Shown: positions 9,219 to 24,119 of the stretch, one piece after another
Numbering within the stretch: the first letter of the stretch is position 1
How the letters are laid out: the number at the start of each line of letters is the position of its first letter
NCBI GenBank assembly: GCA_963737265.1
Contig: CAVTRY010000011.1
Coordinates: 672,001-736,000 of the forward strand
Length of the DNA: 64,000 nt
From: an uncultured delta proteobacterium
Lineage (GTDB): Bacteria; Myxococcota_A; Polyangia; Fen-1088
Direction of reading: 5' to 3'
Notes under the pieces: model-generated
What the model was told of the DNA's origin: nothing
Database searches by the model: none
What the model saw: the letters and a program-made list of their open reading frames with translations, nothing else
Program-made: the position numbers and the translations under genes

Positions 9219-9228
9219 GGCTCTTGAA

Positions 9229-9249
9229 ATGCTAGCATAATGCTAGCAG
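9229..9249. promoter_or_regulatory. Palindromic operator of the TA operon
   Basis: ATGCTAGCAT-A-ATGCTAGCAG directly upstream of the antitoxin ATG; RHH antitoxins bind such inverted repeats. Confidence 0.65.
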
Positions 9250-9256
9250 GTGCAAC

Positions 9257-9484
9257 ATGGCAACTCTCACGATTAGAAATGTCCCAGACAAGGTCACAAA
9301 GTCGCTGAAGACTCTAGCCCGAAAGAACCATCGCTCGATGGAGCAAGAGGTGCGCGAGCTCATCAACGAGCACGTCGGTGAGCGCCTCTCTGTCCTCGAC
9401 CAAATCGAAGCCGCATGGGTCAAGCAGACACGTCGCCCGACCGCGGCTGAAGTCCAGGGATGGATCGCCACGGGACGCGAATGA
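9257..9484 (+). CDS. vapB: FitA/StbC-like ribbon-helix-helix antitoxin (VapB)
   Basis: MATLTIRNVPDKV..SLK..A..NHRSMEQEVR.LI; ATGA overlap with the toxin. Confidence 0.88.
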   Translation: MATLTIRNVPDKVTKSLKTLARKNHRSMEQEVRELINEHVGERLSVLDQIEAAWVKQTRRPTAAEVQGWIATGRE

Positions 9485-9897
9485 AAGCGGTCGTCGACAC
9501 GAACGTCCTCGCGTATTTTCTTTTGGGCACGCGACCTTTCGTCGAGGAAGCGAGCCGCTTTTGGCACGCGATCGATGGTGCCTTGGCGCCGGCAGTGTGG
9601 GAAGCTGAACTAGCGAATGTCATTTGGATGGCCGTGCGGGCCGACGCCATCGAGGCCGAGGACGCCAGGAGACGCCTCAGCCTCGCGGCGAAGATGGGCA
9701 TTCAATCCGTCCCGAGCAAGACTATGTGGCACGGCGCTCTTGAACGGGCGATTCAGTCGGGGGTGGCGGTGTACGACACCCTGTTCGTTGAACTCGCCAA
9801 ACGCGAGAACCTTCCGCTTGCAACCTTCGATGCGAAGGTGCTCGCGGCGTTCCCTGACATTGCTGTCCGCCCGAAAATCCTCGTCCCACAACACTGA
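9481..9897 (+). CDS. vapC: PIN-domain toxin VapC
   Basis: VVDTNV...E..N...YDTLFVELA....LATFD acidic PIN motifs. Confidence 0.9.
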   Translation: MKAVVDTNVLAYFLLGTRPFVEEASRFWHAIDGALAPAVWEAELANVIWMAVRADAIEAEDARRRLSLAAKMGIQSVPSKTMWHGALERAIQSGVAVYDTLFVELAKRENLPLATFDAKVLAAFPDIAVRPKILVPQH

Positions 9898-9918
9898 ACC
9901 AGTCCGACTAACGCCTTG

Positions 9919-10051
9919 CCGGGATCCCCTCCGAGGGTACTTTCCGGGATCCCCTCCGGGATCCCCTCCGAGGGTACTTTCCGGGATCCCCTCTCCGGGA
10001 TCCCCTCCGAGGGTACTTTCCAGTGCCGGGATCCCCTCCGAGGGTACTTTC
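9919..10051 (+). repeat. Stuttered repeat array 1, left part (unit CCGGGATCCCCTCCGAGGGTACTTT and 3'-truncated forms)
   Basis: 6 units starting with CCGGGATCCCCT, 4 of them with the full TCCGAGGGT core. Confidence 0.95.
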
Positions 10052-10163
10052 TGCTGAGCGACAATTACATCTCCCCAAAGACGACAGCTACGTCGCCCCG
10101 CTTTGAGGCGCGACGGTGACCGTGAGGTAGACCTCCAAGCCCGCAAGCGGGCAGGAGGCACCT

Positions 10164-11663
10164 TTGAAGCCGGTCACCGACGCCCAAGTGAGGCGTTTGA
10201 TGGAAGAGATGAGCAAGATTGGAAAAGTAGGCCAGGCCGCCATGAAGGCGGGCATGGACCGGAAGACAGGGCGGCGATACATCGCCGCGGGCAAGCTACC
10301 GTCGGAGCTACGGCAGCCGCGGTGGTGGCGGACGCGCCCTGACGCGTTCGCCGAGGACTGGCCAGCCGTGGCCAAGTTGCTGGAGGAAACGCCTGGGCTG
10401 GAGGCTCAGACGGTGCTGGAGCTGCTGGAGGCGAAGCAGCCAGGGCGGTACAACGAGAGCCATCTTCGGACAATGCAGCGGCGAATCCGTCGCTGGCGGG
10501 CCGAGCATGGTCCTGCGCGTGAGATTTGGTTCACGCAGGCGCATCGGCCCGGTGAAGCCGCGCAAACCGACTTCACGTCGACGGCGGAGCTTGGTGTGAC
10601 GATCGTGGGCCAGCTATTTGTGCACCTTTTGTGCGTGACGGTGCTGCCGTACTCGAACTGGCAATGGGCGACCGCGTGTCTGTCGGAGTCTCTGGCAGCG
10701 CTTCGGCGAGGGATCCAGTCGGCGCTGTTCCAGCTTGGGCGGGTGCCGCGATACCACCAAACCGACCACTCGACGGCGGCGACACATCAGATCGCTCGCG
10801 ATGCGGAAGATCGCACTTTCAACGATGAATACAAGGCGGTCATGCGGCACCTCGGAATGGAGCCACGAACTACAGCCGTCGGGGCCAAGGAACAAAACGG
10901 CGATGTGGAGGCCAGCAACGGCGCGCTCAAGCGTCGGCTTGAACAAGCGCTGCTGGTGCGTGGCAGCCGCGACTTCGCGGACCAAGACGACTACGAACGC
11001 TTCGTAGCCAAGGTGGTCCGCAAAGCCAACGCTTCGCGAGGCCCGCGCGTCGCCGAGGAGATCGAAGCCATGCGGCCGCTGGTGGTGGAGCGTTTGCCGG
11101 AGTACGCAGAAATGACGGCACCTGTGGCGTCGACGAGCACCATCCGGGTCAAGTCGTGCGCCTACTCGGTGCCGTCGAGGCTGATCGGCGCACGGGTGAG
11201 AGTCCGCGTGTTCGAGCACCGAATCGAGGTGTACTACGCCGACAACTTGGAATTGGCCTGCGACAGGCTGCGAGGCAAGACCGCGCGCATCGACTACCGG
11301 CACGTCATCTGGTCTTTGGTGCGCAAGCCGGGCGCGTTTTCTCGCTACGTCTACCGAGAAGAGCTGTTTCCAAGCGTGACTTTCAGGCGGGCATACGACG
11401 CGATCCAGGCGACCAAGCCTGGAATCAAAGGCGACGTTGAATACCTGCGCATTCTTCACCTGGCCGCCAGCACGATGGAAGCCGATGTTGAGCAAGCGCT
11501 CACGACTCTGCTTGCCGATGGGACCATCTTGACGGCGGATGCAACCAAGAAGAGATGCACACAGGCGACGGACAGTACCTATCCACCGAGCGTCCCCGCG
11601 CTCGAAGCACCGCTGGTCGATCTCGCGTCCTACGACCTGCTCCTCGAACAGGTGGCATCATGA
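10164..11663 (+). CDS. istA: IS21 transposase IstA
   Basis: N-terminal HTH (MDRKTGRRY), QTDF/TD/NGDVE DDE core, YSVPSRLIG; AGGAGG before the TTG start. Confidence 0.93.
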   Translation: MKPVTDAQVRRLMEEMSKIGKVGQAAMKAGMDRKTGRRYIAAGKLPSELRQPRWWRTRPDAFAEDWPAVAKLLEETPGLEAQTVLELLEAKQPGRYNESHLRTMQRRIRRWRAEHGPAREIWFTQAHRPGEAAQTDFTSTAELGVTIVGQLFVHLLCVTVLPYSNWQWATACLSESLAALRRGIQSALFQLGRVPRYHQTDHSTAATHQIARDAEDRTFNDEYKAVMRHLGMEPRTTAVGAKEQNGDVEASNGALKRRLEQALLVRGSRDFADQDDYERFVAKVVRKANASRGPRVAEEIEAMRPLVVERLPEYAEMTAPVASTSTIRVKSCAYSVPSRLIGARVRVRVFEHRIEVYYADNLELACDRLRGKTARIDYRHVIWSLVRKPGAFSRYVYREELFPSVTFRRAYDAIQATKPGIKGDVEYLRILHLAASTMEADVEQALTTLLADGTILTADATKKRCTQATDSTYPPSVPALEAPLVDLASYDLLLEQVAS

Positions 11664-12508
11664 CCAACGTCTCCGTAGACACGGTCAAGCCGAGCGCGCT
11701 CGACGCTCTGCTGGTGCTTCTGCGCGCGCTCAAGCTGCCTGCCTTCACCCGGCACGCCGAGGAGATCGCGATCAAGGCCAGCCGCGAGGGGTGGACCTTC
11801 AGCCAATACCTCCAGCACCTGGCCGAACTGGAAATCGAAGAGCGCCGAACCCGTCGCATCGATCGCGCGCTTCGCGATTCGGACCTTCCCACGGAGAAAA
11901 CCCTGGCCACCCTGGAACGTGGTCGGCTGTCACCCAAGGTGATGAAGCAGATGGCGAGCCTGTGTGAGGGTGGCTTTGTCGAACGTGGGGAGAACCTGCT
12001 CGTCTTCGGACTGCCCGGCCGAGGCAAAAGTCACGTTGTGGCTGCCATCGGCCACGAACTCATCCGGCGCGGCTACCGGGTCCTCTTCACGCCGACCTTC
12101 GCGCTTGTCCAGAGGCTGCTGGCCGCCAAGCGCGACCTTCGCCTGGAACGAGAACTGGCCGCGCTCGACATCTATCACGCCGTGATCCTCGACGACATCG
12201 GCTACGTCCAGCAGAGCCGCGATGAAATGGAGGTCCTTTTCACCTTCCTGGCCGAGCGGTACGAACGCAAGAGCGTCCTCATCACCAGCAACCTGGTCTT
12301 CAGCGATTGGATCCGCATTTTCAAGGATCCCATGACCACCGCCGCCGCCATCGACCGACTGGTCCACCACGCGGTCATCCTTGAGATGACCGGCCCCAGC
12401 TACCGCAGCGAAGAAGCACGAAAGAGAGGCGTCACCACCCCAGCGACAACTACGACAACTACCGATCAACCAACGACAACTACCCCCGACAACAATGGGG
12501 CGATGTAA
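11660..12508 (+). CDS. istB: IS21 helper ATPase IstB
   Basis: GLPGRGKSH Walker A, ILDDIGY, ITSNL.FS.W, AAIDRLVHHA. Confidence 0.95.
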   Translation: MTNVSVDTVKPSALDALLVLLRALKLPAFTRHAEEIAIKASREGWTFSQYLQHLAELEIEERRTRRIDRALRDSDLPTEKTLATLERGRLSPKVMKQMASLCEGGFVERGENLLVFGLPGRGKSHVVAAIGHELIRRGYRVLFTPTFALVQRLLAAKRDLRLERELAALDIYHAVILDDIGYVQQSRDEMEVLFTFLAERYERKSVLITSNLVFSDWIRIFKDPMTTAAAIDRLVHHAVILEMTGPSYRSEEARKRGVTTPATTTTTTDQPTTTTPDNNGAM

Positions 12509-12544
12509 TTGACGTCACCGGGTGAATGTAGTTGACGTCCAGCA

Positions 12545-12801
12545 ACTTTCGGCGCCCGGGATCCCCTCCCAGTGTACCCGGGATCCCCTCCTCCGGGATC
12601 CCCTCCGAGGGTACTTTCCAGTGCCGGGATCCCCTCCGAGGGTACTTTCGGCGCCCGGGATCCCCTCCCAGTGTACCCGGGATCCCCTCCGAGGGTACTT
12701 GAGCCGTGGCAGCGCGGGCCCGGATCTCCCGGATCCCCTCCGAGGGTACTCCTCCCCGGGATCCCCTCCCCAGCCGGGAAAACCCGTCCGAGGGTACTTT
12801 T
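12545..12801 (+). repeat. Stuttered repeat array 1, right part, leading into the transposase gene
   Basis: About 10 further units starting with CCGG(G)A, 5 with TCCGAGGGT. Confidence 0.95.
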
Positions 12802-12839
12802 CCTCGCAACTTTCTGCTGCCGTTTCCGAGAACCCATGC

Positions 12840-13793
12840 ATGACCCTCCCTCGCCAGGTCGTGCCCGGCCGTGACTACATGATTACTCGTCGCTGTTCCG
12901 AGCGGCGCTTTTTCCTGCGCCCCGACGAAGACACAAACAACGCCTTCATCTATTATTGCCTGGCCCTGGCCGCCAGACGGGCCAAGGTGGAGGTCACGTT
13001 CTCGGTGGCTCTCTCGAACCACCACCACACCGGCATCCACGACCCCGACGGCAACTTCCCCATCTTCATCGAACACTTTCACGGCCTGCTCGCTCGCTGC
13101 CAAAACGCCTATCTCGGCCGCTTCGAAGGCTTCTGGTCATCCGAGCCAACCTCCGTGGTTCATCTGGTCGAGCCCAACGATATCCTCGACAAGATGACCT
13201 ATGCCTTCACCAATCCAACCGCCGCAAATCTGGTCGACACCGTCGAAGAATGGCCTGGCGTCGCCACGTTCCATGCGACCATTTCAGGCGGCCACCTCAC
13301 GGCGACGCGGCCGAAGCACTTCTTTCGCGACGATGGCGACTTGCCTGAAATCGCCAGCCTACCCATCGCGCGGCCGCAGGGCTATCAGCACCTCGATCAG
13401 CGCGAATGGGCCAGCCTCGTTACCGAACGCGTTCGCGCCGAGGAAGCAGACCAGCGCCAACGGCGGGTCGCCAAGGGCATCACCGTGCTCGGACGATACC
13501 GAATCTTGGAGCAGAATCCTTTTCAATGTCCACAGAGCCAGGCCCCGCGATTCCAGATGAGCCCGCGCGTGGCCGCGAAGAACAAGTGGGCGCGTATCGA
13601 GGCGCTCCTGCGCAACCGGGGCTTCATCGAGAAGTACCGGGATGCCTTCCTGGGTCACATGGCCGGGTTGGCGAACATCGTATTTCCCTTTGGCACCTAC
13701 TGGATGCGTAAGTTCGGCAAAGTCGCCTGCGAGGCCGCCGACGCCGTCGAGCAAGCGATCCTCTGCCCGCCCTTGGATCCCGCCGCCGCGTAG
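12840..13793 (+). CDS. RAYT-like HUH/Y1 tyrosine transposase, copy A (intact, 317 aa)
   Basis: YMITRRC, SNHHH (HUH), FW, Y..TNP..A.LV (catalytic Tyr), EWPG, plus a long C-terminal extension. The longer track ORF from 12522 is read-through across repeats. Confidence 0.85.
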   Translation: MTLPRQVVPGRDYMITRRCSERRFFLRPDEDTNNAFIYYCLALAARRAKVEVTFSVALSNHHHTGIHDPDGNFPIFIEHFHGLLARCQNAYLGRFEGFWSSEPTSVVHLVEPNDILDKMTYAFTNPTAANLVDTVEEWPGVATFHATISGGHLTATRPKHFFRDDGDLPEIASLPIARPQGYQHLDQREWASLVTERVRAEEADQRQRRVAKGITVLGRYRILEQNPFQCPQSQAPRFQMSPRVAAKNKWARIEALLRNRGFIEKYRDAFLGHMAGLANIVFPFGTYWMRKFGKVACEAADAVEQAILCPPLDPAAA

Positions 13794-13885
13794 CTGGTGC
13801 CTTCCCATCAAATGAAAATCGCGGTCCCCGCCCGCGCGCTTGCAACATCGCAAGGCCCCTCCCTCTCTCTTCAGATCCTGCCGTG

Positions 13886-14340
13886 AGCTCGCTGCTTGTC
13901 GATTCTGGAGGAATCGCCGCGCAGCACTGGAATGTTGCTCCGGGCCCGCTGCTCGTGCGACTGCCCGATCCGTTGTTCCTTTCCCGCGAACGACCCTCGG
14001 ACCGGAACCACGGGGAACCACGAACGACCCTCGGACCGGAACCACGCAGCTCGCTGCTTGTCGATTCTGGAGGGATCGCCGCGCAGCACTGGAATGTTGC
14101 TCCGGGCCCGCTGCTCGTGCGACTGCCCGATCCGTTGTTCCTTTCCCGCGAACGACCCTCGGACCGGAACCACGCGAACGCGAACGACCCGACCGGAACC
14201 ACGGGGAACCACGAACGACCCTCGGACCGGAACCACGCGGACCGGAACCACGGGGAACCACGAACGACCCTCGGACCGGAACCACGCGGACCGGAACCAC
14301 GCGAACGACCCTCGGACCGGAACCACGGAACCACGGACCG
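13886..14340 (-). repeat. Stuttered repeat array 2 (minus-strand unit CGTGGTTCCGGTCCGAGGGTCGTTCG) with a 127-bp duplication
   Basis: 6 full ACCCTCGGA cores on the + strand plus truncated units; 13886-14012 matches 14048-14174 with 1 mismatch. Confidence 0.93.
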
Positions 14341-14433
14341 AGAATACTCTTCGACATCAACGAATGAATGATTGAGCGCTCACTGCGCACAGGACCTCCG
14401 CCCGGGCACGCGCAAGGCTGACGCCTTTCGCGC

Positions 14434-15566
14434 CTATTTCTGTCCGTTTCCGCCGAATTCGCGCGGCTCGACAACCAGAGGGGGAGTTCCTTTCCCGGAC
14501 GCGGTAACATGAATCACGTCGATATCCACCGCGTCGAGATCTGCAATGTGCGGTGGCCCGAGCCGGATGGTGTTCTTTCCCGCCGCAAGGGTCAGCGAAG
14601 TCGTGGCTGCGTGGATGACATCCCAAGAGCCGCCGAAACAAGGGAACTGCCAGAAGGGCGTGGTGTGGTTGGCACCATCGATCTGCGTCCCGTTCACCGC
14701 GATAAGGTGCGGCCGACACCCAGGCTGTGGATTCGCCTTGGGATTGAAGTAGGTCATCCAGGTCGGGGCCGGGACGCCGCCGCAATCGGCGTCAGTCCAG
14801 TTGTCGTTATTCCCGCAGTGGTACCACCAGGTGATGTCGTAGGCCCCAGCGGCGGGCACGGTGACGGCGGTGAAGGTCACGCCACTGCCGTTGGTTCCGC
14901 CACGGCCAAGAAGTTGCGTAAGCTTGCCACCCCCGCTGCAGCAAACCGCGCCTTCCGCCACTGTCTTGCAGGTCGGCCCGCACGGCGTCACCTCTACTGT
15001 CCCCCCCAATTTCGAAGTTTCCGGGATATTTTCCGGCGCCTCGGCCTCGTACCAGAGGTCGACGTCCCCCCCGCGATCGTGCCGCCCGCACCGCCGGTGC
15101 CGCTCGTGCCGCCCGCGGCACTCGTGCCACCCGCAGCACTCGTGCCGCCCGCGGCGCTCGTGCCGCCCTTCGACGTTGCGCCGCCAGTTCCGGGAATGGC
15201 GCCCGCAGCACCGCCAGCCGAAGTTGAACCTCCCAACCCTCCTGAACTCGCAACGCCACCAGTCGACGCCCCGCCCGCTGCACTCGCTCCGCCCGCGGTC
15301 GTTGCGCCCCCAGCGGCAGTCACGCCCCCGGCAGTTGATGCCCCACCGCCACCGCTACCTCCTGCGCTCGCGACTGTTCCGCCAGCGGAAGTCGCTCCGC
15401 CGGAGCCTGGAAGCGCGCCGCCAAAGCCACCGCTCTTTCCCCCTGATACGGTCGCGCCACCCGTACCAGTGGCGGTGCCGGTGTTCGACGTGCAGCTAGC
15501 CGCCAGCAAGGCGACCAACGCAGCGCCGGCCCAAAGACTGAAACGACAGCAGAATGAACGCGTCAT
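14434..15566 (-). pseudogene. Frameshifted Gly-rich lipoprotein with a CBM35/CBM6-like domain
   Basis: Signal LAASC and Gly linker in one frame; YEAEA...WWYHCG...GCRPHLI...QFPC in another; shift near 15050-15072; paralog of 15677-16828. Confidence 0.75.
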
Positions 15567-15676
15567 GGGAACCTCGTCGATGAAAAAGGGTGGAGTGGCG
15601 GACAAGAGGATCGAAAGCGTGTGGGAGTCAATGGATCTTGTCAGCGCGTGGGTCGACCGCGCGCAGTAGCGATCGG

Positions 15677-16828
15677 TCAGGAACCAGACACGACCGGCGT
15701 AACCAGCTTCGGCCAGAGGGGGTCTGGGGCGACTCCCTTCCCATTCGGCTGTACATCCAGCGCATCAATGTCCGCGGCGTCCAGCGTGGTCGCGCCGGGC
15801 GCGTGGATGAGAATGGTGTTCGCTCCGGCTTTCAACGGAAGGGACGTCGTCGCGCCGTGAAGAGTGGACCAAGGCGCTGTGTAACAAGGGAACTGGTAGT
15901 AGAGCGCCGTCTGGCCGCCTACGGTCGATGACATCGGAACGCCGTTCACATCGATGAGATGTGGCCGGCACCCTGTGCCCGCCCCGGTGTTGTAGTTGAG
16001 TCCACCGCACTTGGTGTCTCCAAAGACGTCAGCGTGCCCGGGTGTGTCCGGCCCGCAATGGTACCACCACGTGACGTCGTAGTTGCCTGCAGCTGGGACG
16101 GTGACCGCATTGAATTGGACTCCCCCACCCTTGTTTTGGCAATTTGTGTAGCTTGACGTTGAAGTGGGCGGATCGCACGGGCTTCGTCCGAGAATTTGAT
16201 TAACAACCTTCCCACCTGAGGCGCAATTGGCACCCTCCTTCACCCCGTCCACTGCGCAGGGGGCGCCCTCTCCAGCGGTCACGCCTTCGACTGGATAGGT
16301 CAGCGTGTTCAGTGGGGACTCGGCCTCGTATCTCATGAAGAAGTTGGCCGGCACATCCGAGCCACCGCCCACACCGCTCGATCCTCCTGCGGAGGATCCT
16401 CCTGCACCACCTGCGTTGACGCCGCCGGTCCCAGCTAAACTGCCGCCGGCTTGCCCCGCATCTGGAACCGTGTTTCCGCCGGTGAAACTGTTGCCGCCAG
16501 TGCCAGTCGTCACGCCACCGGTACCTGGCTGGCCCCCGGTCTGCGCCGCTCCGCCGTTCTGGCTCCCTCCGCCGCCGGTGCCACTCGACACCACAGTTGA
16601 CGCTCCACCGCCACTGCTACCTCCCGTGCTCGCGACTGTTCCGCCAACGGAAGGCGCTCCACCGAAGCCTGGAAGCGCGCCGCCAACGCTGTCGCTCGCT
16701 CCCCCTGATGCGGTCGCGCCACCGGTAGCAGTGGTACTGCTGGTCTTCGACGTGCAGCTAGCCGCGAGCAAGGCGACCAATGCACCGCCGGCCCAAAGAC
16801 TGGAACGACAGCAGAATAGACACGTCAT
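15677..16828 (-). CDS. Gly-rich lipoprotein with a Cys-containing CBM35/CBM6-like domain
   Basis: Lipobox LAASC; YEAE...GVQFNAVTVPAAGNYDVT...L.LKAGANTI...DIDAL.V. Confidence 0.75.
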   Translation of the reverse strand: MTCLFCCRSSLWAGGALVALLAASCTSKTSSTTATGGATASGGASDSVGGALPGFGGAPSVGGTVASTGGSSGGGASTVVSSGTGGGGSQNGGAAQTGGQPGTGGVTTGTGGNSFTGGNTVPDAGQAGGSLAGTGGVNAGGAGGSSAGGSSGVGGGSDVPANFFMRYEAESPLNTLTYPVEGVTAGEGAPCAVDGVKEGANCASGGKVVNQILGRSPCDPPTSTSSYTNCQNKGGGVQFNAVTVPAAGNYDVTWWYHCGPDTPGHADVFGDTKCGGLNYNTGAGTGCRPHLIDVNGVPMSSTVGGQTALYYQFPCYTAPWSTLHGATTSLPLKAGANTILIHAPGATTLDAADIDALDVQPNGKGVAPDPLWPKLVTPVVSGS

Positions 16829-17042
16829 GAGGACCTCATCAATGAAACGGTGGATTGGGAAAATGGAGGATCGAAAGGATCGGAGTCAATGGCTCATGCG
16901 GGCGGTGTCCTGCCAGCGGTGCCCACACCGGTTGTGGGACGTAGACAGACCTCCCAAAGCTTCTATCGGCTCAGGCGCAGGTTGCCGTTCTTTGGTGTTT
17001 TTCTGTTGCGCTATGAATGGTCCCGTGCTACGCGTCTGGTCT

Positions 17043-17855
17043 ATGGCTTTTCCCGTACGCTCATCCCTAGTTCTTGGCTTGGTGACGCTCGCATTCGCGG
17101 GTTCCGCCTCCGCCGCCGATAGGGCGAAGTCGAGGGGAGCGCGGGAGAAAGCCGCCAAGAAGGCGTGTTCTGTGGGGGACTTCCAAAAGGGCGTGGATAT
17201 CCTGGGAGATCTCTTCGTCGAAACCAACGATTTCAACTACGTCTACAACCAGGGCAGATGTCTCCAGCAAAACAGCCGCTGGGAGCAAGCCGTCAATCGA
17301 TTTCGCGAATTCCTGCGTAAAGCAAAGGATCTTTCTGAGAGTGACAGAGTCGAGGTCGATCGTCAAGTCAGCGAATGCGAAAATTCGCTCGCCAAGGCGG
17401 CCCAGGTGGCGCCACCACCGGTCACCGCGGCGCCGCCGACGGTCGCGCGCGTCGAAACGCCGGACCCTGCGCCTGAACCGACGACACCCGAGGTCGCGAC
17501 CAAGCCGACTCCACCGCCGTCGGACGGCAGTCAAGGCAAGGGCCTTCGTACCGCCGGAATCATCTGCGCGGTCGTCGGACTTGCCGCGGTCGGCACCGGC
17601 GTCGGCTTGGCCTTGAAAACCCAAAGTATCACTTCCGATGAGAAGACGGCGGGAGGAGCCACCAAGTCCCAGGAGGATGAGCGCAAGTCCCTGATAACCT
17701 TGGGCTGGGTCAGCTACGGCGTCGGCGCGGCAGCTATCGCAACCGGCGCGATTCTCTATATCGTGGGTTGGCCGAGCGCCCAGTCGACCAGCGTTGCGCT
17801 GTCGCCTGTCCTCGGCCCCGACGGGGCTTCCGTGATGCTGAAAGGGAAATTCTAA
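17043..17855 (+). CDS. Secreted TPR-like protein with C-terminal membrane segments
   Basis: Signal peptide (ASAA), YNQGRC...AV.RFREFLRK, Pro linker, two hydrophobic segments. Confidence 0.7.
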   Translation: MAFPVRSSLVLGLVTLAFAGSASAADRAKSRGAREKAAKKACSVGDFQKGVDILGDLFVETNDFNYVYNQGRCLQQNSRWEQAVNRFREFLRKAKDLSESDRVEVDRQVSECENSLAKAAQVAPPPVTAAPPTVARVETPDPAPEPTTPEVATKPTPPPSDGSQGKGLRTAGIICAVVGLAAVGTGVGLALKTQSITSDEKTAGGATKSQEDERKSLITLGWVSYGVGAAAIATGAILYIVGWPSAQSTSVALSPVLGPDGASVMLKGKF

Positions 17856-20290
17856 TGCGAACTTATCGCGCGGTGCTCTCCAGGGTTGTTTTTTCCATGT
17901 CGGTCGTCGGCTTCGCTGGCCTGCAAGGCTGTTTTGGCCAAGGCACCGGCCTCAAAGCCAGCGACGGCGCGGTTGCCGGGAGACAAATCGAGGGTGGCGG
18001 AGCGGGCGGAAGCGTAGGGAAGGATGGCTCGTCGGGAGACGGCCCAATTTCGTCGGGTGGCAAGATCGCGACCGATGGACCGGCGCCGACAGGCGGCAGC
18101 GCCGGCGGTGCGGGTGGTGGCGGTGGTGGCGGCGCCGGCGGCACCTCAGTCGGAGATGCACCTCTCGCGGGCTCGGGTGGTGCGGGAAGTGGAGGCGCCA
18201 CCGGCGGCGCGGGCGGAACTACCGTTGGGGCTAGCGGCGCGGGCGGAATCGTCGTCGCCGCTGGCGGCGCCGGAGGTACTTCCGTGGTGGATGCTCCGCT
18301 CGCAGCCTCGGGTGGTGCGGGAAGCGGGGGGGCCACTGGCGGCACGGGCGGCAATGGCACGGGCGGCAGCGGCACGGGCGGCAGCGGCGGCGGCGCGGGG
18401 GGCACGACGACCTTTTCCACCGGTGCCACTTGCCTGACCGATGCCCAGTGCACGCTCGGATTCTGCGTCGACGGCGTTTGCTGCAACAGCAGGTGCGCCG
18501 GACAATGCCAGGCCTGCGCCGAGACTGGTAGTGTTGGGACATGCGCGACGGTCACTTCTGGAAGCCCCCGGGGCTCTCGCACGGCCTGCAGCGGCACTGA
18601 CAAGTGCAAGGGCACCTGTGATGGTTCCAGCGCCGCGTCATGCAAGATGCCCAACAATGAGACCATCTGCAAGAACGAAATCTGCTCGGCCGATCAACAT
18701 ACGCCCCCCTCGTATTGTAATGGCAGCGGTACTTGTCCCACCCAAAATGCGTCGCCATGCGGGAGTGGCGCGTGCGCAACCGACGGAAGTGGCACATGCC
18801 TCGGCTCCTGCACGGCAACCTCCTGCCCCACCGGCCAATACTGTACCTCTACCGGCAGTTGTGCGCCGAAGAAGGGTGCCGGAGCCGGAAACACGTGCGC
18901 GACAGGGACCGAGTGTGGTTCTGGCTTCTGCGCACCAGATGGTGTTTGCTGCCAGTCGGCGTGCACCGGTCAATGCCAGACCTGCAACAACAGCACCGGG
19001 CTCTGTAGCCGAGTCGCCTCGGGCCAGCCCGTGGGAGGCCGGGGCGCGTGCAGCAACGCCGGCACGACTTGCGGGGGAACCTGCGATGGGAGCTCAGATA
19101 CCTGCCACTATCCAGGTACAGAAATAACCTGTGGAAGCCCGGCGTGCTCTTCAGACAACACTTCGACAGTTACGCCGGCCTGCGGTGGATCCGGCACATG
19201 TACCTCTTCCACGGTCGGCCCTTGCGGATCTAGCGCCTACTGCAGCGGCGGTAGCTGTGTGCCGAAAGGTAGCGGCAACTGCTCCAGCAACATCCAATGC
19301 ACGAGCGGCAATTGCTCCGCGGGCCTTTGCTGCGCAAGTGGACTTACCAATTCCAACGGAGTCTGTTGCACTTCCGGCCAGACCGGTTGCAGTGGTACCT
19401 GCTGTATGGCTCCGAACACGTGCGGCGGTGGCGGAACCGCCGGTGTGTGCGGGTGCATGCCCGATTGCGGCACTCGCGTCTGTGGTTCCGTACCCAACGG
19501 GTGTGGCTCGACTTGCGGCTCCTGCAACAATCCCCCAACGTGCTTCACCGGAACGGGCACGTGCAACACGAGCGGTCAATGCACATACACGCCGGTGACC
19601 TGCACTGCGACGCCCTGCCACAATGCCGGGTCATGTTCGGGGGGAAGCTGTCAACCAGGCAGCGCAAAGAACGCGATGCAGGACTTGAGCTGCCAATCGA
19701 CGCCGGGGAATTGGTGTTCTAATGGAACCTGCGTGCAGTGCTTGCAGAATTCGAACTGCCCGTCCACTTCCCCGACATGCACCAACCACACTTGTGGTTG
19801 TCCCGTTAAGACCGCGAGCAATGTCATAAACAATCCTGGGTTCGACGATGCGTTCTCTTGGAGCTACACGGGTAGCGCATATTGGGACAGCAACGTTGAC
19901 GCTGATGGCTGCTCCGGCTCAGGATCGGCCGGGCTGCCTGCTGCGTTGTCGGCGGGTGATGCCCCTTACCCTTATGCCGAGCAATGCATTTTTCCGGTGG
20001 AATCGAACGTGCTCTACCAGTTCGGCTACTCTCTTTACGTCAATGACCCTGCCATCCATGTTTCTTGCCTGATAGATTACTATACGGGCGCTTACTGTGC
20101 GCTCGGCACTGAAGACGGCTACTCGTACGCCGACCAGCCTTTCATGCCAGCGGTTGGATGGACACCTCACGTGTTCTGGGCGCAGTCGGGGCCTAGTTCC
20201 CGAAGCGCCAGTGTTTATTGCACTTGCACTAGCGGGTGTGGGGGTGCTCACGTGGACAAACTCTTTCTCAATCCGAATGGAACATTCTGA
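17855..20290 (+). CDS. Large Gly-rich and Cys-rich repeat lipoprotein
   Basis: TAATG coupling; LQGC lipobox; repeated C.DGVCC...C.GQC..C modules; C-terminal NPGFD beta domain. Confidence 0.75.
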   Translation: MRTYRAVLSRVVFSMSVVGFAGLQGCFGQGTGLKASDGAVAGRQIEGGGAGGSVGKDGSSGDGPISSGGKIATDGPAPTGGSAGGAGGGGGGGAGGTSVGDAPLAGSGGAGSGGATGGAGGTTVGASGAGGIVVAAGGAGGTSVVDAPLAASGGAGSGGATGGTGGNGTGGSGTGGSGGGAGGTTTFSTGATCLTDAQCTLGFCVDGVCCNSRCAGQCQACAETGSVGTCATVTSGSPRGSRTACSGTDKCKGTCDGSSAASCKMPNNETICKNEICSADQHTPPSYCNGSGTCPTQNASPCGSGACATDGSGTCLGSCTATSCPTGQYCTSTGSCAPKKGAGAGNTCATGTECGSGFCAPDGVCCQSACTGQCQTCNNSTGLCSRVASGQPVGGRGACSNAGTTCGGTCDGSSDTCHYPGTEITCGSPACSSDNTSTVTPACGGSGTCTSSTVGPCGSSAYCSGGSCVPKGSGNCSSNIQCTSGNCSAGLCCASGLTNSNGVCCTSGQTGCSGTCCMAPNTCGGGGTAGVCGCMPDCGTRVCGSVPNGCGSTCGSCNNPPTCFTGTGTCNTSGQCTYTPVTCTATPCHNAGSCSGGSCQPGSAKNAMQDLSCQSTPGNWCSNGTCVQCLQNSNCPSTSPTCTNHTCGCPVKTASNVINNPGFDDAFSWSYTGSAYWDSNVDADGCSGSGSAGLPAALSAGDAPYPYAEQCIFPVESNVLYQFGYSLYVNDPAIHVSCLIDYYTGAYCALGTEDGYSYADQPFMPAVGWTPHVFWAQSGPSSRSASVYCTCTSGCGGAHVDKLFLNPNGTF

Positions 20291-20319
20291 GGAGCTCTCA
20301 CCTTTCGGTGCCTCTCCAA

Positions 20320-20405
20320 TATCCCCAATATCCTGTCCGAGGGTCATTCTTAAGCGCAACTTTCTGCTGCCGTTTCCGAGAATCCATGCATGCCAGGTCG
20401 TGCCC
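20320..20405 (+). mobile_element. Decayed 5' end of the RAYT-like element
   Basis: TCCGAGGGT + GCAACTTTCTGCTGCCGTTTCCGAGAATCCATGCATG + CCAGGTCGTGCCC, matching the leader and first codons of copy A with a deletion. Confidence 0.8.
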
Positions 20406-20554
20406 CCGAGGCTACGCGAAATCGAGATTTCCGAGCGTATCCTGTTGTCGTCAATCGGGAGATTCTCGCGTACAGAGGACATCGAACCCAGGAAATCCCC
20501 CTCCGAGGGTACTTTTCCGCGCAACTTTCTGCTGCCGTTTCCGAGAATCCATAC

Positions 20555-21127
20555 ATGACCCTCCCCCGCCAGGTCGTGCCCGGCCGTGACTACATGATTA
20601 CCCGCCGCTGTTCCGAGCGGCGCTTCTTCCTCCGTCCTGACGAAGACACCAACAACGCCTTCATCTACTGCCTGGCCTTGGCCGCCAGGCGGGCCAAGGT
20701 GGAGGTCACGTTCTCGGTGGCTCTCTCGAATCACCACCACACCGGCATCCACGACCCCGACGGCAACTTCCCAGTCTTCATCGAATACTTTCACGGTCTG
20801 CTCGCTCGCTGCCAGAACGCCCATCTTGGCCGCTTCGAAGGCTTCTGGTCATCCGAGCCGACCTCCGTCGTTCATCTGGTCGAGGCCAACGACATCCTGG
20901 AGAAGATGACTTACGCCTTCACCAATCCGACCGCCGCAGATTTGGTCGACACCGTCGAGGAATGGCCTGGCGTCACCACGTTCCAGGCCAGCATTTCGGG
21001 CGGCCACCTCACCGCGACCCGGCCGAAGCACTTCTTTCGCGACGACGGCGACTTGCCTGAAATCGCTAGTCTACCCATCGCGCGGCCTCAGCAAATCCAA
21101 TCCCCCTCCGAGGGTACTTTCAGCTGA
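20555..21127 (+). pseudogene. RAYT-like transposase copy B, 3'-truncated
   Basis: Highly similar to copy A up to 21091 (PIARPQ), then replaced by a repeat unit. Confidence 0.88.
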
Positions 21128-21360
21128 AAATCCCCCTCCGAGGGTACTTTCAAATCCCCCTCCCCAAATCCCCCACAAATCCCCCTCCCGAAAATCCCCA
21201 AAATCCCAAAATCCCCGTCCGAGGGTACTCTTTTCCCCAAATCCCCCTCCAAATCCCCAAATCCCCCTCCGAGGGTACTTTCAAACCTTTAGAAAATCCC
21301 CCTCTAAATCCCCGTGCGAGTAGAAAATCCCCCTCTAGATCCCCGTACGAGGATACCTTT
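21092..21360 (+). repeat. Stuttered repeat array 3 (unit AAATCCCCCTCCGAGGGTACTTT and truncations)
   Basis: More than 15 units starting with AAATCC, 4 with the full core. Confidence 0.93.
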
Positions 21361-21398
21361 TCGCGCAACTTTCTCGTGTCGTTTCCGAGAACCCATTC

Positions 21399-21605
21399 AT
21401 GACCCTCCCTCGCCAGGTCGTGCCCGGCCGTGACTAAATGATGACTCGCCGCTGTTCCGAGCGGCGCTTCTTCCTGCGCCCCGATGAAGACACCAACAAC
21501 GCCTTCATCTACTGCCTGGCCTTGGCCGCCAGGCGGGCCAAGGTGGAGGTCACGTTCTCGGTGGCTCTCTCGAACCACCACCACACCGGCATCCACGACC
21601 CCGAC
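21399..21605 (+). pseudogene. RAYT-like transposase copy C (nonsense mutation and truncation)
   Basis: TAC>TAA at 21435; ends after HDPD at a repeat unit; offset 367 bp from copy D. Confidence 0.88.
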
Positions 21606-21728
21606 AAATCCCCCTCCGAGGGTACTTTCAAATCAAATCCCCCTCCGAGGGTACTTTAGAAAATCCCCCTCTAAATCCCCGTGCGAGTAGAAAATCCCCC
21701 TCTAAATCCCCGTGCGAGGATACCTTTT
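21605..21728 (+). repeat. Stuttered repeat array 4
   Basis: AAATCCCCC units with 2 full cores. Confidence 0.9.
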
Positions 21729-21765
21729 CGCGCAACTTTCTCGTGTCGTTTCCGAGAACCCATTC

Positions 21766-22716
21766 ATGACCCTCCCTCGCCAGGTCGTGCCCGGCCGTGA
21801 CTACATGATGACTCGCCGCTGTTCCGAGCGGCGCTTCTTCCTGCGCCCCGATGAAGACACCAACAACGCCTTCATCTACTGCCTGGCCTTGGCCGCCAGG
21901 CGGGCCAAGGTGGAGGTCACGTTCTCGGTGGCTCTCTCGAACCACCACCACACCGGCATCCACGATCCCGATGGCAACTTCCCCATCTTCATTGAACACT
22001 TTCACGGCCTGCTCGCTCGCTGCCAAAACGCCTATCTCGGCCACTTCGAAGGCTTCTGGTCATCCGAGCCAACCTCCGTGGTTCATCTGGTCGAGGCAAA
22101 CGATATCCTCGAAAAGATGACCTATGCCTTCACCAATCCGACCGCCGCGGATCTGGTCGACACCGTCGAGGAATGGCCTGGCGTGACCACGTTCCAGGCC
22201 ACCATTTCGGGCGGCCACCTCACCGCGACGCGGCCGAAGCACTTCTTTCGTGACGACGGCGATTTGCCTGAAATGGCCAGCCTACCCATCGCGCGGCCGC
22301 AGGGCTATCAGGACCTCGAGCAGGGCGAATGGGCCAGTCTCGTTACCGAACGCGTTCGCGCCGAGGAAGCAGACCACCGCCAACGGCGGGTCGCCAAGGG
22401 CATCGCCGTGCTTGGACGAGACCGAATCCTGCGGCAGAATCCTTTTCACTGTCCGCAGAGCCAGGCCCCGCGATTCCAGATGAGCCCGCGCGTGGCCGCG
22501 AAGAACAAGTGGGCGCGTATCGAGGCGCTCCGGCGCAACCGAGGCTTCATCGAGAAGTACCGGGATGCGTTCCTGGGTCACGTGGCTGGTTTGGCGAACA
22601 TCGTGTTTCCCTTCGGCACCTACTGGATGCGCAAGTTCGGCAAGGTCGCCTGCGAGGCCGCCGAAGCTGTCGAGCAAGCGATCCTGAGCCCGCCTTTGGA
22701 TCCCGCCGCCGCGTAG
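21766..22716 (+). CDS. RAYT-like HUH/Y1 tyrosine transposase, copy D (intact, 316 aa)
   Basis: Same motifs as copy A with scattered substitutions. Confidence 0.85.
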   Translation: MTLPRQVVPGRDYMMTRRCSERRFFLRPDEDTNNAFIYCLALAARRAKVEVTFSVALSNHHHTGIHDPDGNFPIFIEHFHGLLARCQNAYLGHFEGFWSSEPTSVVHLVEANDILEKMTYAFTNPTAADLVDTVEEWPGVTTFQATISGGHLTATRPKHFFRDDGDLPEMASLPIARPQGYQDLEQGEWASLVTERVRAEEADHRQRRVAKGIAVLGRDRILRQNPFHCPQSQAPRFQMSPRVAAKNKWARIEALRRNRGFIEKYRDAFLGHVAGLANIVFPFGTYWMRKFGKVACEAAEAVEQAILSPPLDPAAA

Positions 22717-22860
22717 CTGGTGCCTTTCGATCATGGTGCCTTTCGATCGAGGTGAAAATTGTGGCTCCACTCTCCGGCGCGATGGGAGACGCCCGCCTGC
22801 GCTCGCGCTTGCGACGTCGCAAGGCCCCTCTCTGTCTTCGGATCTTGCCGTGGGATCGCG

Positions 22861-22992
22861 CAAATCCCGGTCCGAGGGTACTTTTTTCCAAAATCCCCCT
22901 CTGGAACATTCTGAGGTGCGTGGAATCCGGTCAGGAGTTCTCGGATCCCCTCCGAGGGTACTTTTCGGATCCTCAGATCCCCTCCGAGGGGA
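22861..22992 (+). repeat. Repeat cluster 5 with hybrid units
   Basis: CAAATCCCGGTCCGAGGGTAC, CGGATCCCCTCCGAGGGTAC, AGATCCCCTCCGAGGGG. Confidence 0.85.
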
Positions 22993-23090
22993 GTTGACCC
23001 GATTTGATGGAACGGTTTCGTTACACTGCTTTCTTCACAGAGTGTCAGCTCGAATTCGATCGGGCCGTGGTAATTGAGCGCCGCGGGCCG

Positions 23091-23345
23091 AAAACCCCGT
23101 CCGAGGGGACTTTTCCTCACAACTTTCTGCTGCGTTTCCGAGAACCCATGCATGACCCTCCCTCGCCAGGTCGTGCAACTACATGATTTACCCGCCGCTG
23201 TTCCGAGCGGCGCGTCTTCTTGCGTCCTGATGACGACACCAACAACGCCTTCATCTACTGCCTGGCCTTTGAGAGGGCACGGTCGTCTGGATGCGCACGT
23301 TCGGCAGAGTCGCCTGCGAGACTGCCGAGGCCGTCGAGCAAGCCA
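23091..23345 (+). pseudogene. Internally deleted RAYT-like copy E (MITE-like)
   Basis: Core + leader + MTLPRQVV...AFIYCLA joined to the 3' segment WMRTFGRVACETAEAVEQA. Confidence 0.82.
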
Positions 23346-23425
23346 ATCGCTGTGAGCTGCGGGTCTTCTTTGAGGGCGCGACCTCGGTGGTGGATCGAGA
23401 TAACATTTATGGTATATTGGTTACC

Positions 23426-23613
23426 GTGACTTCGACCGAAGTCATTCGACTGCTCAAGCGAGACGGTTGGGGCGAGGTGCGAGTACGAGGCTCGCATCAT
23501 CATTTCGCGCATTCAACGAAGCCGGGAATCGTTACTGTCCCCCATCCCAAGAAAGATATTCCAAGAGGTACCCTTGCAGCATTCGACGTCAGGCTGGCAT
23601 CAAGCTGAGGTGA
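23426..23613 (+). pseudogene. hicA: HicA toxin with a C-terminal frameshift
   Basis: RGSH..F.H..KPG.VTVPHPKKDIP.GTL; the expected SIRRQAGIKLR* is in another frame after ~23576 and its TGA overlaps the hicB ATG. Confidence 0.8.
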
Positions 23614-24119
23614 TGACGATGCACTACACGGCGATTATCACAAAAGAAGGCAGGCAGACGCTGGCCGAGTTCCCCGGGTGTCCGGGCTGCCAGACATTCG
23701 CCGACGCGGGCGACGACATTGGCAAGCGGGCATCCGAGGCATTGCTCGGATGGCTGGAAGCGCATCTCGTGTCGGGCCAGGCACCACCCGAGCCCAAATC
23801 GATCAGGTCAAATGGGCGGGCTCGGACGCTGCAGGTGCCCGTTCCGGCCAAGCTCGCCGTGAAGCTGGCGCTTCGCTGGGCACGCAAGCGTGCTGGCCTG
23901 ACACAGGCCGAACTGGCCCGTCGAGCAGGTCTAAGCCAGCCCGCCGTGGCCCGCCTGGAAGACCCCGACCACAACCCCACGCTCGATTTGCTCGAACGTG
24001 TGGCCAAGGCCTTGGGCACGCGCCTTGAGGTCGGCCTTCGGGCCGCGCAAATGAGGGAATCCTGCAGTTGTCAATCGGGAGATTATCGTGGACGGAGGAG
24101 ACGAGAAGAGTCTTGCTGA
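23613..24119 (+). CDS. hicB: HicB antitoxin with C-terminal Xre HTH
   Basis: AEFPGCPGCQTF...A.EAL..WLE plus GLTQAELARRAGLSQPAVARLE...NPTL; the tail after GLRAA looks like read-through. Confidence 0.85.
   Translation: MTMHYTAIITKEGRQTLAEFPGCPGCQTFADAGDDIGKRASEALLGWLEAHLVSGQAPPEPKSIRSNGRARTLQVPVPAKLAVKLALRWARKRAGLTQAELARRAGLSQPAVARLEDPDHNPTLDLLERVAKALGTRLEVGLRAAQMRESCSCQSGDYRGRRRREESC

Follow-up and report, generated by a model that had tools for sequence, protein, structure and literature searches.

Polar stacks of partial end copies at the inverted ends of a RAYT-like insertion element from soil myxobacteria

Organisation of the locus

The window (64,000 nt of contig CAVTRY010000011.1, from an uncultured delta proteobacterium) contains gene copies A and C of a transposase, together with gene remnants and arrays of short repeated units (Table 1). 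It carries 25 exact copies of the sequence TCCGAGGGT, all confined to 9930-14316 and 20336-22959, where 0.64 would be expected and where none of 100 shuffles of the window, used as a control for chance, gave more than three. An earlier note on this DNA had described three repeat families with TCCGAGGGT as their common core. These are present as described, but they are not separate families, being the left and right inverted ends of a single IS-like element of about 1.25 kb with TCCGAGGGT as the conserved core of the ends. At each inverted end the core, (T)CCGAGGGTA, sits about 10 nt inside a variable tip.

Table 1. Features of the copy A locus and the copy C region (window coordinates).
Feature	Position	Strand	Details
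Copy A left-end array, outer part	9919..10051	+	4 cores; units begin CCGGGATCCCC and stop at variable points
IS21-family element within copy A left array	10052..12544	+	istA 10164-11663, istB 11660-12508
Copy A left-end array, inner part	12545..12774	+	
Copy A gene-proximal left end	12775..12839	+	tip CCGGGAAAACCCG, core 12787-12795, conserved leader reaching ATG
Gene copy A	12840..13793	+	317-aa Y1 HUH protein; SNHHHTG, MTYAFTNP
Copy A 3' non-coding part and gene-proximal right end	13794..14012	-	core 13993-14001, tip to 14012
Copy A right-end array	14013..14337	-	5 further cores; minus-strand units begin CGTGGTTCCGG; holds ~128-nt unit
Decayed solo left end	20335..20405	+	leader and gene start bearing a small deletion
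~595-nt unit	20493..21087	+	tip, core (20502), leader, codons 1 to ~178
Short-unit array	21091..21286	+	tips CAAATCCCCC / GAAAATCCCC
318-nt block	21287..21604	+	short units, decayed-core end, gene nt 1-206 including stop codon
Short-unit array, then copy C proximal end and leader	21605..21765	+	decayed core GTGCGAGGAT
Gene copy C	21766..22716	+	316 aa; 93% identity to copy A
Left-end-type units at expected right-end place of copy C	22860..22990	+	cores 22871, 22951; partial core 22979
Left end with internally deleted gene remnant	23088..23345	+	TCCGAGGGG at 23100; codons ~1-48 fused to ~288-309

The arrays of copy A are as first reported, with the correction that an IS21-family element divides what was formerly one left array. 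This element is an outsider to the system. It is bounded by a 6 bp target duplication (ACTTTC, at 10046-10051 and 12545-12550), and the block that it interrupts is found intact again at 12615-12680. Units of the left array start at -11/-12 relative to the core and end at +2, +3, +4, +11 to +14 or about +17. On the minus strand the right array mirrors the left; its ~128 nt unit lies at 14047-14174, and Tandem Repeats Finder reports a period of 162 at 13886-14203.

In the copy C region, the ~595 nt unit runs as far as about codon 178 of the gene and then returns to a tip, and the 318 nt block is duplicated at 21654-21971 (Tandem Repeats Finder period 367, 98% matches). No inverted core was found downstream of copy C. 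A unit had been claimed to precede every transposase copy, and each of the five gene copies or fragments in the window does have an end unit about 50 nt before the ATG, two of them with decayed cores (21347, 21714) and one with TCCGAGGGG (23100). The claimed range of unit lengths, from 8 bp through ~128 bp to ~600 bp, is likewise present, with units of 7-13 nt common besides those of ~128 and ~595 nt.

The transposase

The sole recognised ORF of the element encodes a 316 aa HUH protein. Two motifs, N60-H61-x-H63 and Y121-x3-N125-P126, are invariant in all 15 aligned members (49-94% identity); the other conserved tyrosines are Y13, Y39 and Y266. The AlphaFold2 model of the window protein (pLDDT 74.6) has E. 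coli RAYT as its best Foldseek match (4er8_A, E 1.4e-6, TM(target) 0.62), followed at ranks 2-16 by the TnpA proteins of IS608 and ISDra2. All 15 members match the NCBIfam family REP_Tyr_transpos (NF047646) below its cut-off (best E 5e-12), with the window protein scoring 29.3 bits against a cut-off of 80. Pfam Y1_Tnp (PF01797) matched none of the 15 at E values up to 1, and a search of the 317 aa copy A protein found no Pfam family, helicases included. Modelled fold, invariant motifs and weak family matches agree with the RAYT-like HUH enzyme predicted earlier, and support assignment to the RAYT-type single-tyrosine HUH proteins.

Distribution of the core and the element

The enrichment seen in the window extends to the genome, where TCCGAGGGT occurs 139 times. 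As counted from the genome-wide listing, 100 of these cores are grouped in 15 clusters of two or more, and the remaining 39 are singletons, a number at or below the chance level as extrapolated from the window shuffles. The same genome contains three intact transposase genes, one frameshifted, one interrupted by IS21 and at least eight fragments. Across the order, matches to the gene occur in 42 of 89 genomes, with up to 19 in one genome. At genus level (13 genomes), 11 carry both gene and core doublets, one has doublets alone, one has neither, and none has the gene alone; a reversed control pattern gave a single hit in 89 genomes. The hosts of this small mobile element are soil myxobacteria.

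The cores face inwards: in 105 distinct loci the gene strand carries 146 of the 154 upstream cores, and the opposite strand 172 of the 185 downstream ones. Besides the ~1.25 kb form with its one gene, there are gene-less miniature derivatives of about 110 bp that bear the stacks at both ends, which points to action in trans. Arrays are still present beside decayed genes. The homologues bear out the proposed association, as the arrays travel with the protein family. In more distant members the ends are single and inverted, with a variant core, ACCAAGGTTGA; where identity is 58% or lower, arrays are often lacking and the ends single, which shows that the enzyme need not produce stacks.

Contigs of repeated DNA are prone to mis-assembly, and low-complexity arrays could in principle be assembly or sequencing artefacts. 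This is hardly credible here: the architecture recurs in five species genomes, in additional genomes from the order and, across many samples, in dozens of metagenome contigs, one array holds an IS21 element with a clean target duplication, and the tips are locus-specific, differing widely in sequence among loci.

Polarity, offset and ends of the units

Counts of core orientation, polarity and start offset were repeated after removal of 10 duplicate loci, whereas the conservation profile and the junction, start-base and unit-end counts precede the removal of all ten; the loci are mutually related rather than independent samples. The 79 array sides together hold 256 units that begin at the tip and break off before the core is complete, compared with 23 of the opposite type, which are mostly point-mutated cores. 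The polarity noted in the window extends across the protein family. On 34 of the 41 sides having at least four units, the commonest start lies 9-11 nt to the 5' side of the core, and conservation on the 5' side of the core drops from 0.95 at -8, reaching baseline by -12/-13. A fixed start 10-11 nt upstream had been proposed; the offset is near-constant whatever the tip, but with a latitude of about 3 nt.

The far ends of the units are variable, as had been stated, yet bimodal, lying either just before the core or 3-6 nt beyond it. Among 531 unit ends, 151 fall at -3 to 0 and 99 at +12 to +15, with just 29 at +5 to +8. Such piling up at both flanks is expected if the core is occupied by something. 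Units are mostly 7-25 nt long (median 13 nt, many of 7-10 nt), and the most frequent class is without any core.

One explanation is that the arrays are iteron-like clusters of binding sites, made by ordinary duplication and selected to titrate or regulate the enzyme, the polarity marking the protein-bound part. Their position directly upstream of the gene and the frequency of full units bearing a core (181-195, against ~250 partial units) suit this idea. It is nevertheless very improbable, since the commonest units carry no core, arrays also occur at right ends and on gene-less elements, and they vary between near-identical strains and outlast decay of the gene. The variation between strains is recent: two loci (L073 and L075) differ solely by one 89 nt duplication starting at -10, and another pair (L087 and L088, 98.9% identical) differs in the number and extent of units while all units keep a common fixed outer end. 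These loci come from different samples, indicating rapid turnover of the arrays between strains.

The enzyme had been proposed to recognise a linear motif without dependence on a hairpin, and this is supported. Single ends showed no stable hairpin (-0.9 to -5.6 kcal/mol, no more than about 2 SD away from shuffled sequences), and no runs of covarying pairs between tip and post-core positions were found in 293 distinct units.

Junctions between units

Units abut directly at 94 of 241 junctions, and 50 of these 94 share no base (mean 0.96 nt), indicating that joining needs little homology. The other 147 junctions contain 1-19 unassigned bases; divergence from the reference unit explains part of these, though not necessarily all. 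The base preceding the unit start (n = 234) is C in 87 cases, G in 73, T in 51 and A in 23, and no obligatory base was found on either side of the start. Partial units agree in tip variant with the unit to their right in 71 of 115 cases, where 72.5 would be expected for a random unit of the same array.

These features bear on the possibility that host replication or repair makes the stacks, the enzyme, bound or nicking at the end, stalling or breaking forks there and the 3' end resuming at variable nearby points through template switching or end joining. The polar pattern would be identical if the break were fixed and the re-entry variable, the extra bases at 147 of 241 junctions and a mean microhomology of about 1 nt resemble end joining or templated filler, and the start flanks lack specific bases. 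Set against this are the zero microhomology at 50 of the 94 abutting junctions and the start point, which resection would blur but which on many sides stays within a range of about 3 nt. A site-specific event at the same place would also still be required, so that this explanation differs from joining by the HUH enzyme only in the joining agent. We regard it as rather unlikely, though the strongest of the alternatives.

Another source could be one-ended, rolling-circle-like products in the style of IS91 or Helitrons, prematurely ended and inserted at the nick of a resident end, or whole copies inserted and later trimmed by recombination. A fixed start with a variable end is inherent in such products, partial units without preference for the right-hand neighbour suit a strand arriving from elsewhere, and long units of 128-595 nt do occur. 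However, a median of 13 nt, with many units of 7-10 nt, would make for a very short mobilised strand, the remainder of an interrupted resident copy (from j+1 to the right end) was not seen behind copy C, and neither a helicase nor a second tyrosine is evident in an element with one recognised ORF. This origin is improbable.

Relationship to known elements

RAYT-like tyrosine transposase genes with flanking terminal inverted repeats have been described as TIRYTs or TIRtrons (Di Nocera et al. 2013, PMC3733652) and equated with TnpAY1 subclass 2.1 (Quentin et al. 2018, PMC6006769). The present system thus has published relatives and is a variant of these TIR-flanked elements. As in TIRtrons, inverted repeats rather than REP hairpins flank a RAYT-like Y1 HUH gene, the protein has a C-terminal extension beyond the catalytic core, and gene-free repeats also occur, whether single, paired or clustered (PMC3733652). 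The HUH and Y-x3-NP motifs that define TnpAY1 class 2 in PMC6006769 are found in all 15 sequences, and the NH[HY]H found here resembles the subclass 2.1 form, NH[YF]H. Differences are the length of the protein (316 aa, against a subclass 2.1 median of 238), the multicopy state of the element with its many fragments, and the tips, since GAAATCCCCC, CCGGGATCCCC and others, read by eye only, do not fit the reverse complement of GGGGWSAS, a motif common to part of the published TIRs (PMC3733652). The TIRYT/TIRtron text of that paper makes no mention of nested one-sided partial copies, and polar stacks of partial end copies were not found in the literature searched. The earlier interpretation is supported in part, namely as to the polar arrays with their near-constant offset and the RAYT-like enzyme, but its new system is a TIRtron variant.

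Likeness to the E. coli RAYT/REP system lies in the best fold match and the weak family matches, in the inverted copies of a cognate repeat that flank the gene, and in the doublets of inverted ends with a spacer, which resemble REPINs. The window protein differs in falling below the REP_Tyr_transpos cut-off, and no conserved dinucleotide is present at the putative cut. A REPtron with REP hairpins (GTAG-footed palindromes) was ruled out by the single ends, which have neither stable hairpin nor covariation, and a RAYT-like single-copy, vertically inherited gene by the three intact copies, the many remnants and the patchy occurrence (42 of 89 genomes).

The Y1 HUH fold is shared with IS200/IS605 elements (IS608 and ISDra2 TnpA), which cleave at a fixed distance from an end structure that the enzyme recognises (PMC8266576). 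In those elements the subterminal hairpins lie on a single strand and the motif is Y-x3-Q (PMC6006769). Membership of IS200/IS605 was ruled out by the inverted, hairpin-free ends, the Y-x3-NP motif and the absence of Y1_Tnp matches (0/15).

In IS91, ISCR and Helitron elements an HUH enzyme acts at a fixed origin end, and the far end becomes variable when termination fails. Their products are long and overrun the far end, their ori and ter ends are dissimilar and not known to be inverted repeats, and their Rep enzymes have two tyrosines or are fused to a helicase. The fixed origin and variable far end are shared with the present arrays, but the units here mostly stop short and are stacked symmetrically at both ends. 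Membership of IS91 or Helitrons is disfavoured by the Y1 fold, the lack of a Pfam helicase and ends that are inverted copies of each other.

A model for array formation

On balance we favour, by a modest margin over doubt, that the stacks are built by the HUH enzyme itself through nicking at a fixed site and rejoining. From the arrangement of the units we infer a nick, its position and strand, a covalent link, an extension and a resealing. The enzyme would bind the core on the strand reading TCCGAGGGT and nick it 9-11 nt to the 5' side, and the new 5' end, which is the tip, would remain covalently held. This fixed 5' end would then be joined to a 3'-OH other than the original, the simplest source being short new DNA primed at the nick and displacing the tip strand. 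Synthesis may stop in some cases at the edge of the protein-bound core, in some just past it and in a few far into the element. Resealing would leave one strand with an extra copy of the stretch between tip and stop point, which the following round of replication would fix as a tandem insertion. At the right end, the mirror image, the same steps on the opposite strand would produce the second stack, and repeated rounds would give nested arrays growing outward.

Joining of a 5' end to varied 3' ends has a precedent in the biochemistry of E. coli RAYT, where the covalently held 5' end joins a foreign 3'-OH in vitro: an unrelated oligonucleotide added to the reaction supplies the 3'-OH that resolves the 5'-phosphotyrosine intermediate, and according to the authors the 3'-OH might also prime replication (PMC8266576). 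Some observations count against nicking and rejoining by the enzyme. Clean transesterification predicts exact junctions, and 147 of 241 have extra bases; the simplest local-copy version predicts a match to the neighbouring tip, which is no more frequent than for a random unit. HUH enzymes normally require a specific sequence at the nick, and the lack of an obligatory base beside the start argues against nicking on this ground also.

A further and tentative suggestion, less probable than not by some way, is that the element represents a new mode of HUH action, in which a linear core would serve as a ruler for a cut about 10 nt away in any sequence, with no hairpin or nick motif, at both inverted ends and on opposite strands, followed by joining in vivo to an arbitrary 3'-OH. 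If so, transposition would take a route different from the single-strand peel-and-paste of IS608, such as copy-out in which displacement synthesis converges from the two ends, and the arrays would be a natural, readable log of individual strand-transfer events. The stacks look like a natural record of the cutting and rejoining of DNA by the enzyme.

Anatomy and Distribution of the Element

The window contains 25 copies of the core TCCGAGGGT, which lies about 10 nt inside the variable tip of each element end; the expected number is 0.64, and all 25 copies fall in two regions (see table). Clusters of the core are found across the whole genome (6.55 Mb, 25 contigs, 63% G+C), in which 100 of the 139 copies, counted from the listed positions, form 15 clusters of at least two; the remaining 39 are single, a number not above the chance prediction. 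The closest public relatives of this genome are metagenome-assembled Myxococcota ("uncultured delta proteobacterium", "Myxococcales bacterium").

Read inwards, an element end opens with a tip about 10 nt long, continues with the core (T)CCGAGGGTA and closes with a few conserved bases. At the left end, a conserved leader some 40 nt in length then leads to the ATG. The right end is the left end mirrored on the other strand, about 200 nt past the stop codon, and the distance between the tips of the proximal units is about 1.24 kb. The gene is intact three times in this genome, twice within the window and once on contig C14; there are also a frameshifted copy, a 60%-identical copy split by an IS21-family element, and at least eight fragments. 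Six miniature elements without the gene are present as well, in each of which a left and a right end enclose a small internal palindrome and the two cores are about 90 nt apart. The miniature elements are found in close pairs, each locus having two of them separated by 270–1,400 nt with flanking DNA in between, which suggests long one-sided duplications running through and past a whole miniature element. An Rfam scan of window positions 9000–24000 found no family.

Locations of features in the window, in other contigs of the same genome (C14 etc.) and in a locus fetched around a protein relative (L017)
Feature	Location	Remarks
PIN-domain protein gene	window 9460-9897	Pfam PIN, E 1.4e-12; its end is 22 nt short of the outermost unit of the left array
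First core region	window 9930-14316	
IS21-family element	window 10052-12544	own inverted ends, 6-bp target duplication; inserted in the left array
Open frame, copy A	window 12840-13793	between plus-strand and minus-strand cores of the first region
Second core region	window 20336-22959	
Deletion	window 20388-20392	beside duplications
Gene, copy C	window 21766-22716	
Deletion	window 22717-22860	beside duplications; right end of copy C absent
Deletion	C14:307500-307560	beside duplications
IS21-family element	C18:156757-159250	
IS21-family element	C16:268414-270905	
IS21-family elements	C19:420-5404	two copies head to tail, abutting at 2911/2912
Paired miniature elements	C13:240250-241050	
Paired miniature elements	C23:212750-213400	
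Paired miniature elements	C16:272449-274330	
80-nt tandem repeat	C23:537600-538050	3 copies, containing GGAAACCC-TCCGAGGGT-ATCCATCTCG
Run of N	L017:2693-2918	within the right array; masks the difference from the near-identical locus L071

The IS21-family element in the left array is unrelated to the stacking, and the array block that it splits reappears intact slightly further on. About 21 full copies of it (at least 99.8% identity) are present in the genome, three of them within sequence of the HUH element, one each in a left array, a left-end leader and a gene, and the abutting pair on contig C19 resembles a tandem IS21 intermediate. The 80-nt repeat on contig C23 has different flanks and no partial units, and may be an unrelated repeat with the same 9-mer or a different element type.

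Across the order, a protein match at E 1e-20 or better was found in 42 of 89 genomes, with up to 19 matches per genome, many of them truncated. In this multicopy, truncated and patchy distribution the element behaves like an insertion sequence and unlike a domesticated gene kept in single copy. Within the genus of the window, the gene and close core doublets occur together in 11 of 13 genomes; one genome has doublets without a gene match at the threshold, one has neither, and the gene without doublets was seen in none. As a control, the reversed pattern gave one hit among the 89 genomes. The genus member with doublets but no protein match at E 1e-20 or better (G031, 94% complete) has four close core doublets, and may hold only miniature elements or remnants.

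The Encoded Protein and Its Relation to Known Systems

The copy A product has no Pfam family and matches the NCBIfam model REP_Tyr_transpos weakly (E 6e-7, 29 bits, below the cut-off of 80). A collection of 5.8 billion proteins contains 1,643 relatives at E 0.001 or better; among the 120 listed, nearly all are 303–316 aa long and some are named "REP element-mobilizing transposase RayT" at source. Residues N60, H61 and H63 (SNH[HY]H) and Y121, N125 and P126 (Y-x3-NP) are invariant in a 15-member alignment reaching down to 49% identity, and Y-x3-NP marks TnpAY1 class 2 according to Table 1 of Quentin et al. 2018 (PMC6006769). The best PDB match of the AlphaFold2 model (pLDDT 74.6) is 4er8_A, the E. 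coli RAYT in complex with a REP hairpin (E 1.4e-6, TM 0.62 on target); it spans about the first 145 residues, and the IS608 and ISDra2 transposases come next. No recognisable relative of the C-terminal half was found by PDB sequence search or in the ESM Atlas: the former gave a single chance hit (E 0.21), and the latter, queried with residues 150–317, only unnamed Myxococcota clusters (best score 0.88).

RAYT-like genes with inverted repeats in place of REP hairpins were named TIRYT/TIRtrons by Di Nocera et al. 2013 (PMC3733652), and Quentin et al. 2018 (PMC6006769) largely equate them with TnpAY1 subclass 2.1, described there as having a C-terminal extension and no REPs. The present family is like these in architecture and motifs and is filed as a variant within the group. 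The tests for a classical RAYT place it outside that type, as it has no hairpin and is not single-copy. It also lacks the subterminal hairpins of IS200/IS605 and carries Y-x3-NP, whereas Y-x3-Q is the IS200/IS605 form; comparison likewise placed it outside the IS91/Helitron-type elements. In the openly accessible literature searched, no title or abstract matching nested one-sided partial ends at HUH elements was found, nor was any biochemistry on the TIR-flanked RAYT-like group.

Polarity and Offset of the Arrays

The earlier note had proposed to test whether arrays flanking homologous transposases share one polarity and a constant offset from the core, and in loci collected around protein relatives they share the polarity and a near-constant offset. 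These loci numbered 115 (5 from species genomes, 30 from genomes of the order and 80 from metagenome contigs), of which 105 were distinct after removal of duplicates. Inward-facing NCCGAGG[GT]T cores prevail on both sides of the gene: in the 105 distinct loci, those upstream lie 146 times on the gene strand and 8 times on the other, and those downstream 172 times on the opposite strand and 13 times on the gene strand, although the loci are mutually related and the counts overstate independence. Among loci with at least 58% protein identity and enough flank, a left core is present in 33 of 37 and a right core in 25 of 28, with at least two cores in 26 and 21 of these sets, respectively. More distant members have the variant cores CCGAGGTTGA, ACCAAGGTTGA and CCGACGTTGA, and often single ends without a stack.

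Array sides were parsed into the longest exact pieces of a reference consisting of the array's own consensus tip and the gene-proximal unit; per-array consensus tips were used because the proximal unit of copy A has a variant tip. Each side was read from left to right and from right to left, which gives the bases shared at a junction to either neighbour in turn; the counts of this parse, like those for conservation, junctions, start bases and unit ends, precede full duplicate removal; the main polarity counts were redone on the 105 distinct loci. On the 79 sides with at least two cores, 256 units (left-to-right parse; 249 right-to-left) start with the tip and break off before the core is complete, against only 23 (19) tip-less units running through its 3′ part, most of which are point-mutated cores. 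Counted from the base before CCGAGG, the commonest unit start lies at -9 to -11 on 34 of the 41 sides with at least four units, and on another five at -13, the limit beyond which the reference places no start. Conservation among core-bearing units falls from 0.95 at -8 to background by -12/-13, and decays 3′ of the core over +11 to +18.

Unit ends are bimodal, with 151 of 531 at -3 to 0, 99 at +12 to +15 and only 29 at +5 to +8 (before full duplicate removal), and have a tail past +100. Window examples of this tail measure about 128, 318 and 595 nt, and the two longer ones reach into the gene. The pile-up of stops at both core edges and their scarcity inside would fit a protein sitting on the core. 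The stacks might instead be clusters of binding sites maintained by selection; we consider this very improbable.

The tips are highly divergent between loci, for example GAGTCCCGCA, GGAGTTCAAA, CACGCGCCGCT and GACCCCCGA, with an invariant core (arrays in G030–G041, genomes of the order, and in L001–L005, loci of relatives); several copies within one genome have a common tip, GAAATCCCC[CG]. The varied tips show that there were many separate expansions.

Junctions, Turnover and Nesting

Consecutive tip-started units meet at 241 junctions. In 94 of these the units abut directly, sharing 0.96 nt on average and no base at all in 50 cases. The others contain 1–19 bases that cannot be assigned to the reference, in part owing to divergence of older units from today's proximal unit. 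No obligatory base was found before or at the unit start. A site-specific nick or block could be retained while the junctions are made by host template switching or end joining; this main rival is a real contender, though we think it unlikely.

Near-identical loci from different metagenomes differ in their arrays. L073 equals L075 plus one 89-nt duplication, from -10 to 27 nt into the reading frame; in L087 and L088 (98.9% identical) the right-array units differ in number and extent and have a common outer end point; and between L057 and L058, whose gene sequences are 99.8% identical, the difference lies in the outer left array. That the stacks are an artefact seems next to negligible in probability.

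The second window region is a nest: a unit from the tip to codon 178 and a later one from the tip to nt 206 are each followed by short units, and then comes the intact copy C, which has units of left-end type in place of its right end. Truncated copies might have been laid down by one-ended transposition into a resident nick site, a route that we judge improbable. Deletions lie beside duplications in three places: copy C is without its right end, one decayed left end has ATGCATG fused directly to CCAGGTCG, and one unit on contig C14 jumps from tip position -1 to +49.

A hairpin within the single end was rejected, the 12 ends folded as ssDNA being weak (-0.9 to -5.6 kcal/mol, against -1.3 to -4.3 for shuffles). 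The one whole 125-nt miniature element tested with its tips forms a long ssDNA hairpin through end pairing (-26.7 against -16.7 ± 3.2). A covariation scan of tip against post-core bases (156 position pairs, 293 distinct units) yielded a single z of 3.4, standing alone, and neighbouring pairs formed no run, so that the few cases seen by eye, such as GGAAG/CTTCC in L001, are not general. A noisy test for partial units copying their right-hand neighbour gave no signal (71 of 115, 72.5 expected).

A Possible Mechanism and Its Implications

Judged from the sequences, the pattern calls for an event that always takes place at the outer edge of an end, on the TCCGAGGGT strand, together with a variable partner end. 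HUH cleavage leaves the enzyme on the 5′ end, in a link that any suitable 3′-OH can resolve, and by analogy this chemistry would match that need exactly. For the E. coli RAYT in vitro, PMC8266576 describes resolution of the link by an added unrelated oligonucleotide, and its authors suggest that the 3′-OH may prime replication. In the present element, the enzyme would nick at the outer edge of the end on the TCCGAGGGT strand, short displacement synthesis would proceed from the nick, the displaced covalent 5′ end would be resealed to the new 3′ end, and the next replication would fix an extra "tip to stop point". As the stacks are mirror images, the same reaction would occur on opposite strands at the two ends, whereas in IS608 both cuts are on one strand.

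On balance, the stacks are somewhat more likely than not enzyme-made in a general sense; the extend-and-reseal detail is put forward with less confidence. Counted against an enzymatic origin are the absent nick-site motif, the many inexact junctions and the failed neighbour test.

This genome appears to record hundreds of events, with the position of the cut relative to the core, the strand, the reach of the new end and the joining partner. The arrays yield predictions for cheap oligonucleotide assays: nick position, nicked strand, indifference to tip sequence and promiscuous joining to a 3′-OH. If these are true, the enzyme could be considered as a compact tool for joining DNA or duplicating it locally in a site-anchored way, and HUH transposases would be able to reshape their own ends and neighbouring DNA at a high rate. 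Should the joining be the work of host repair, the arrays remain markers of a fragile point, strong and site-specific, made by a mobile element.
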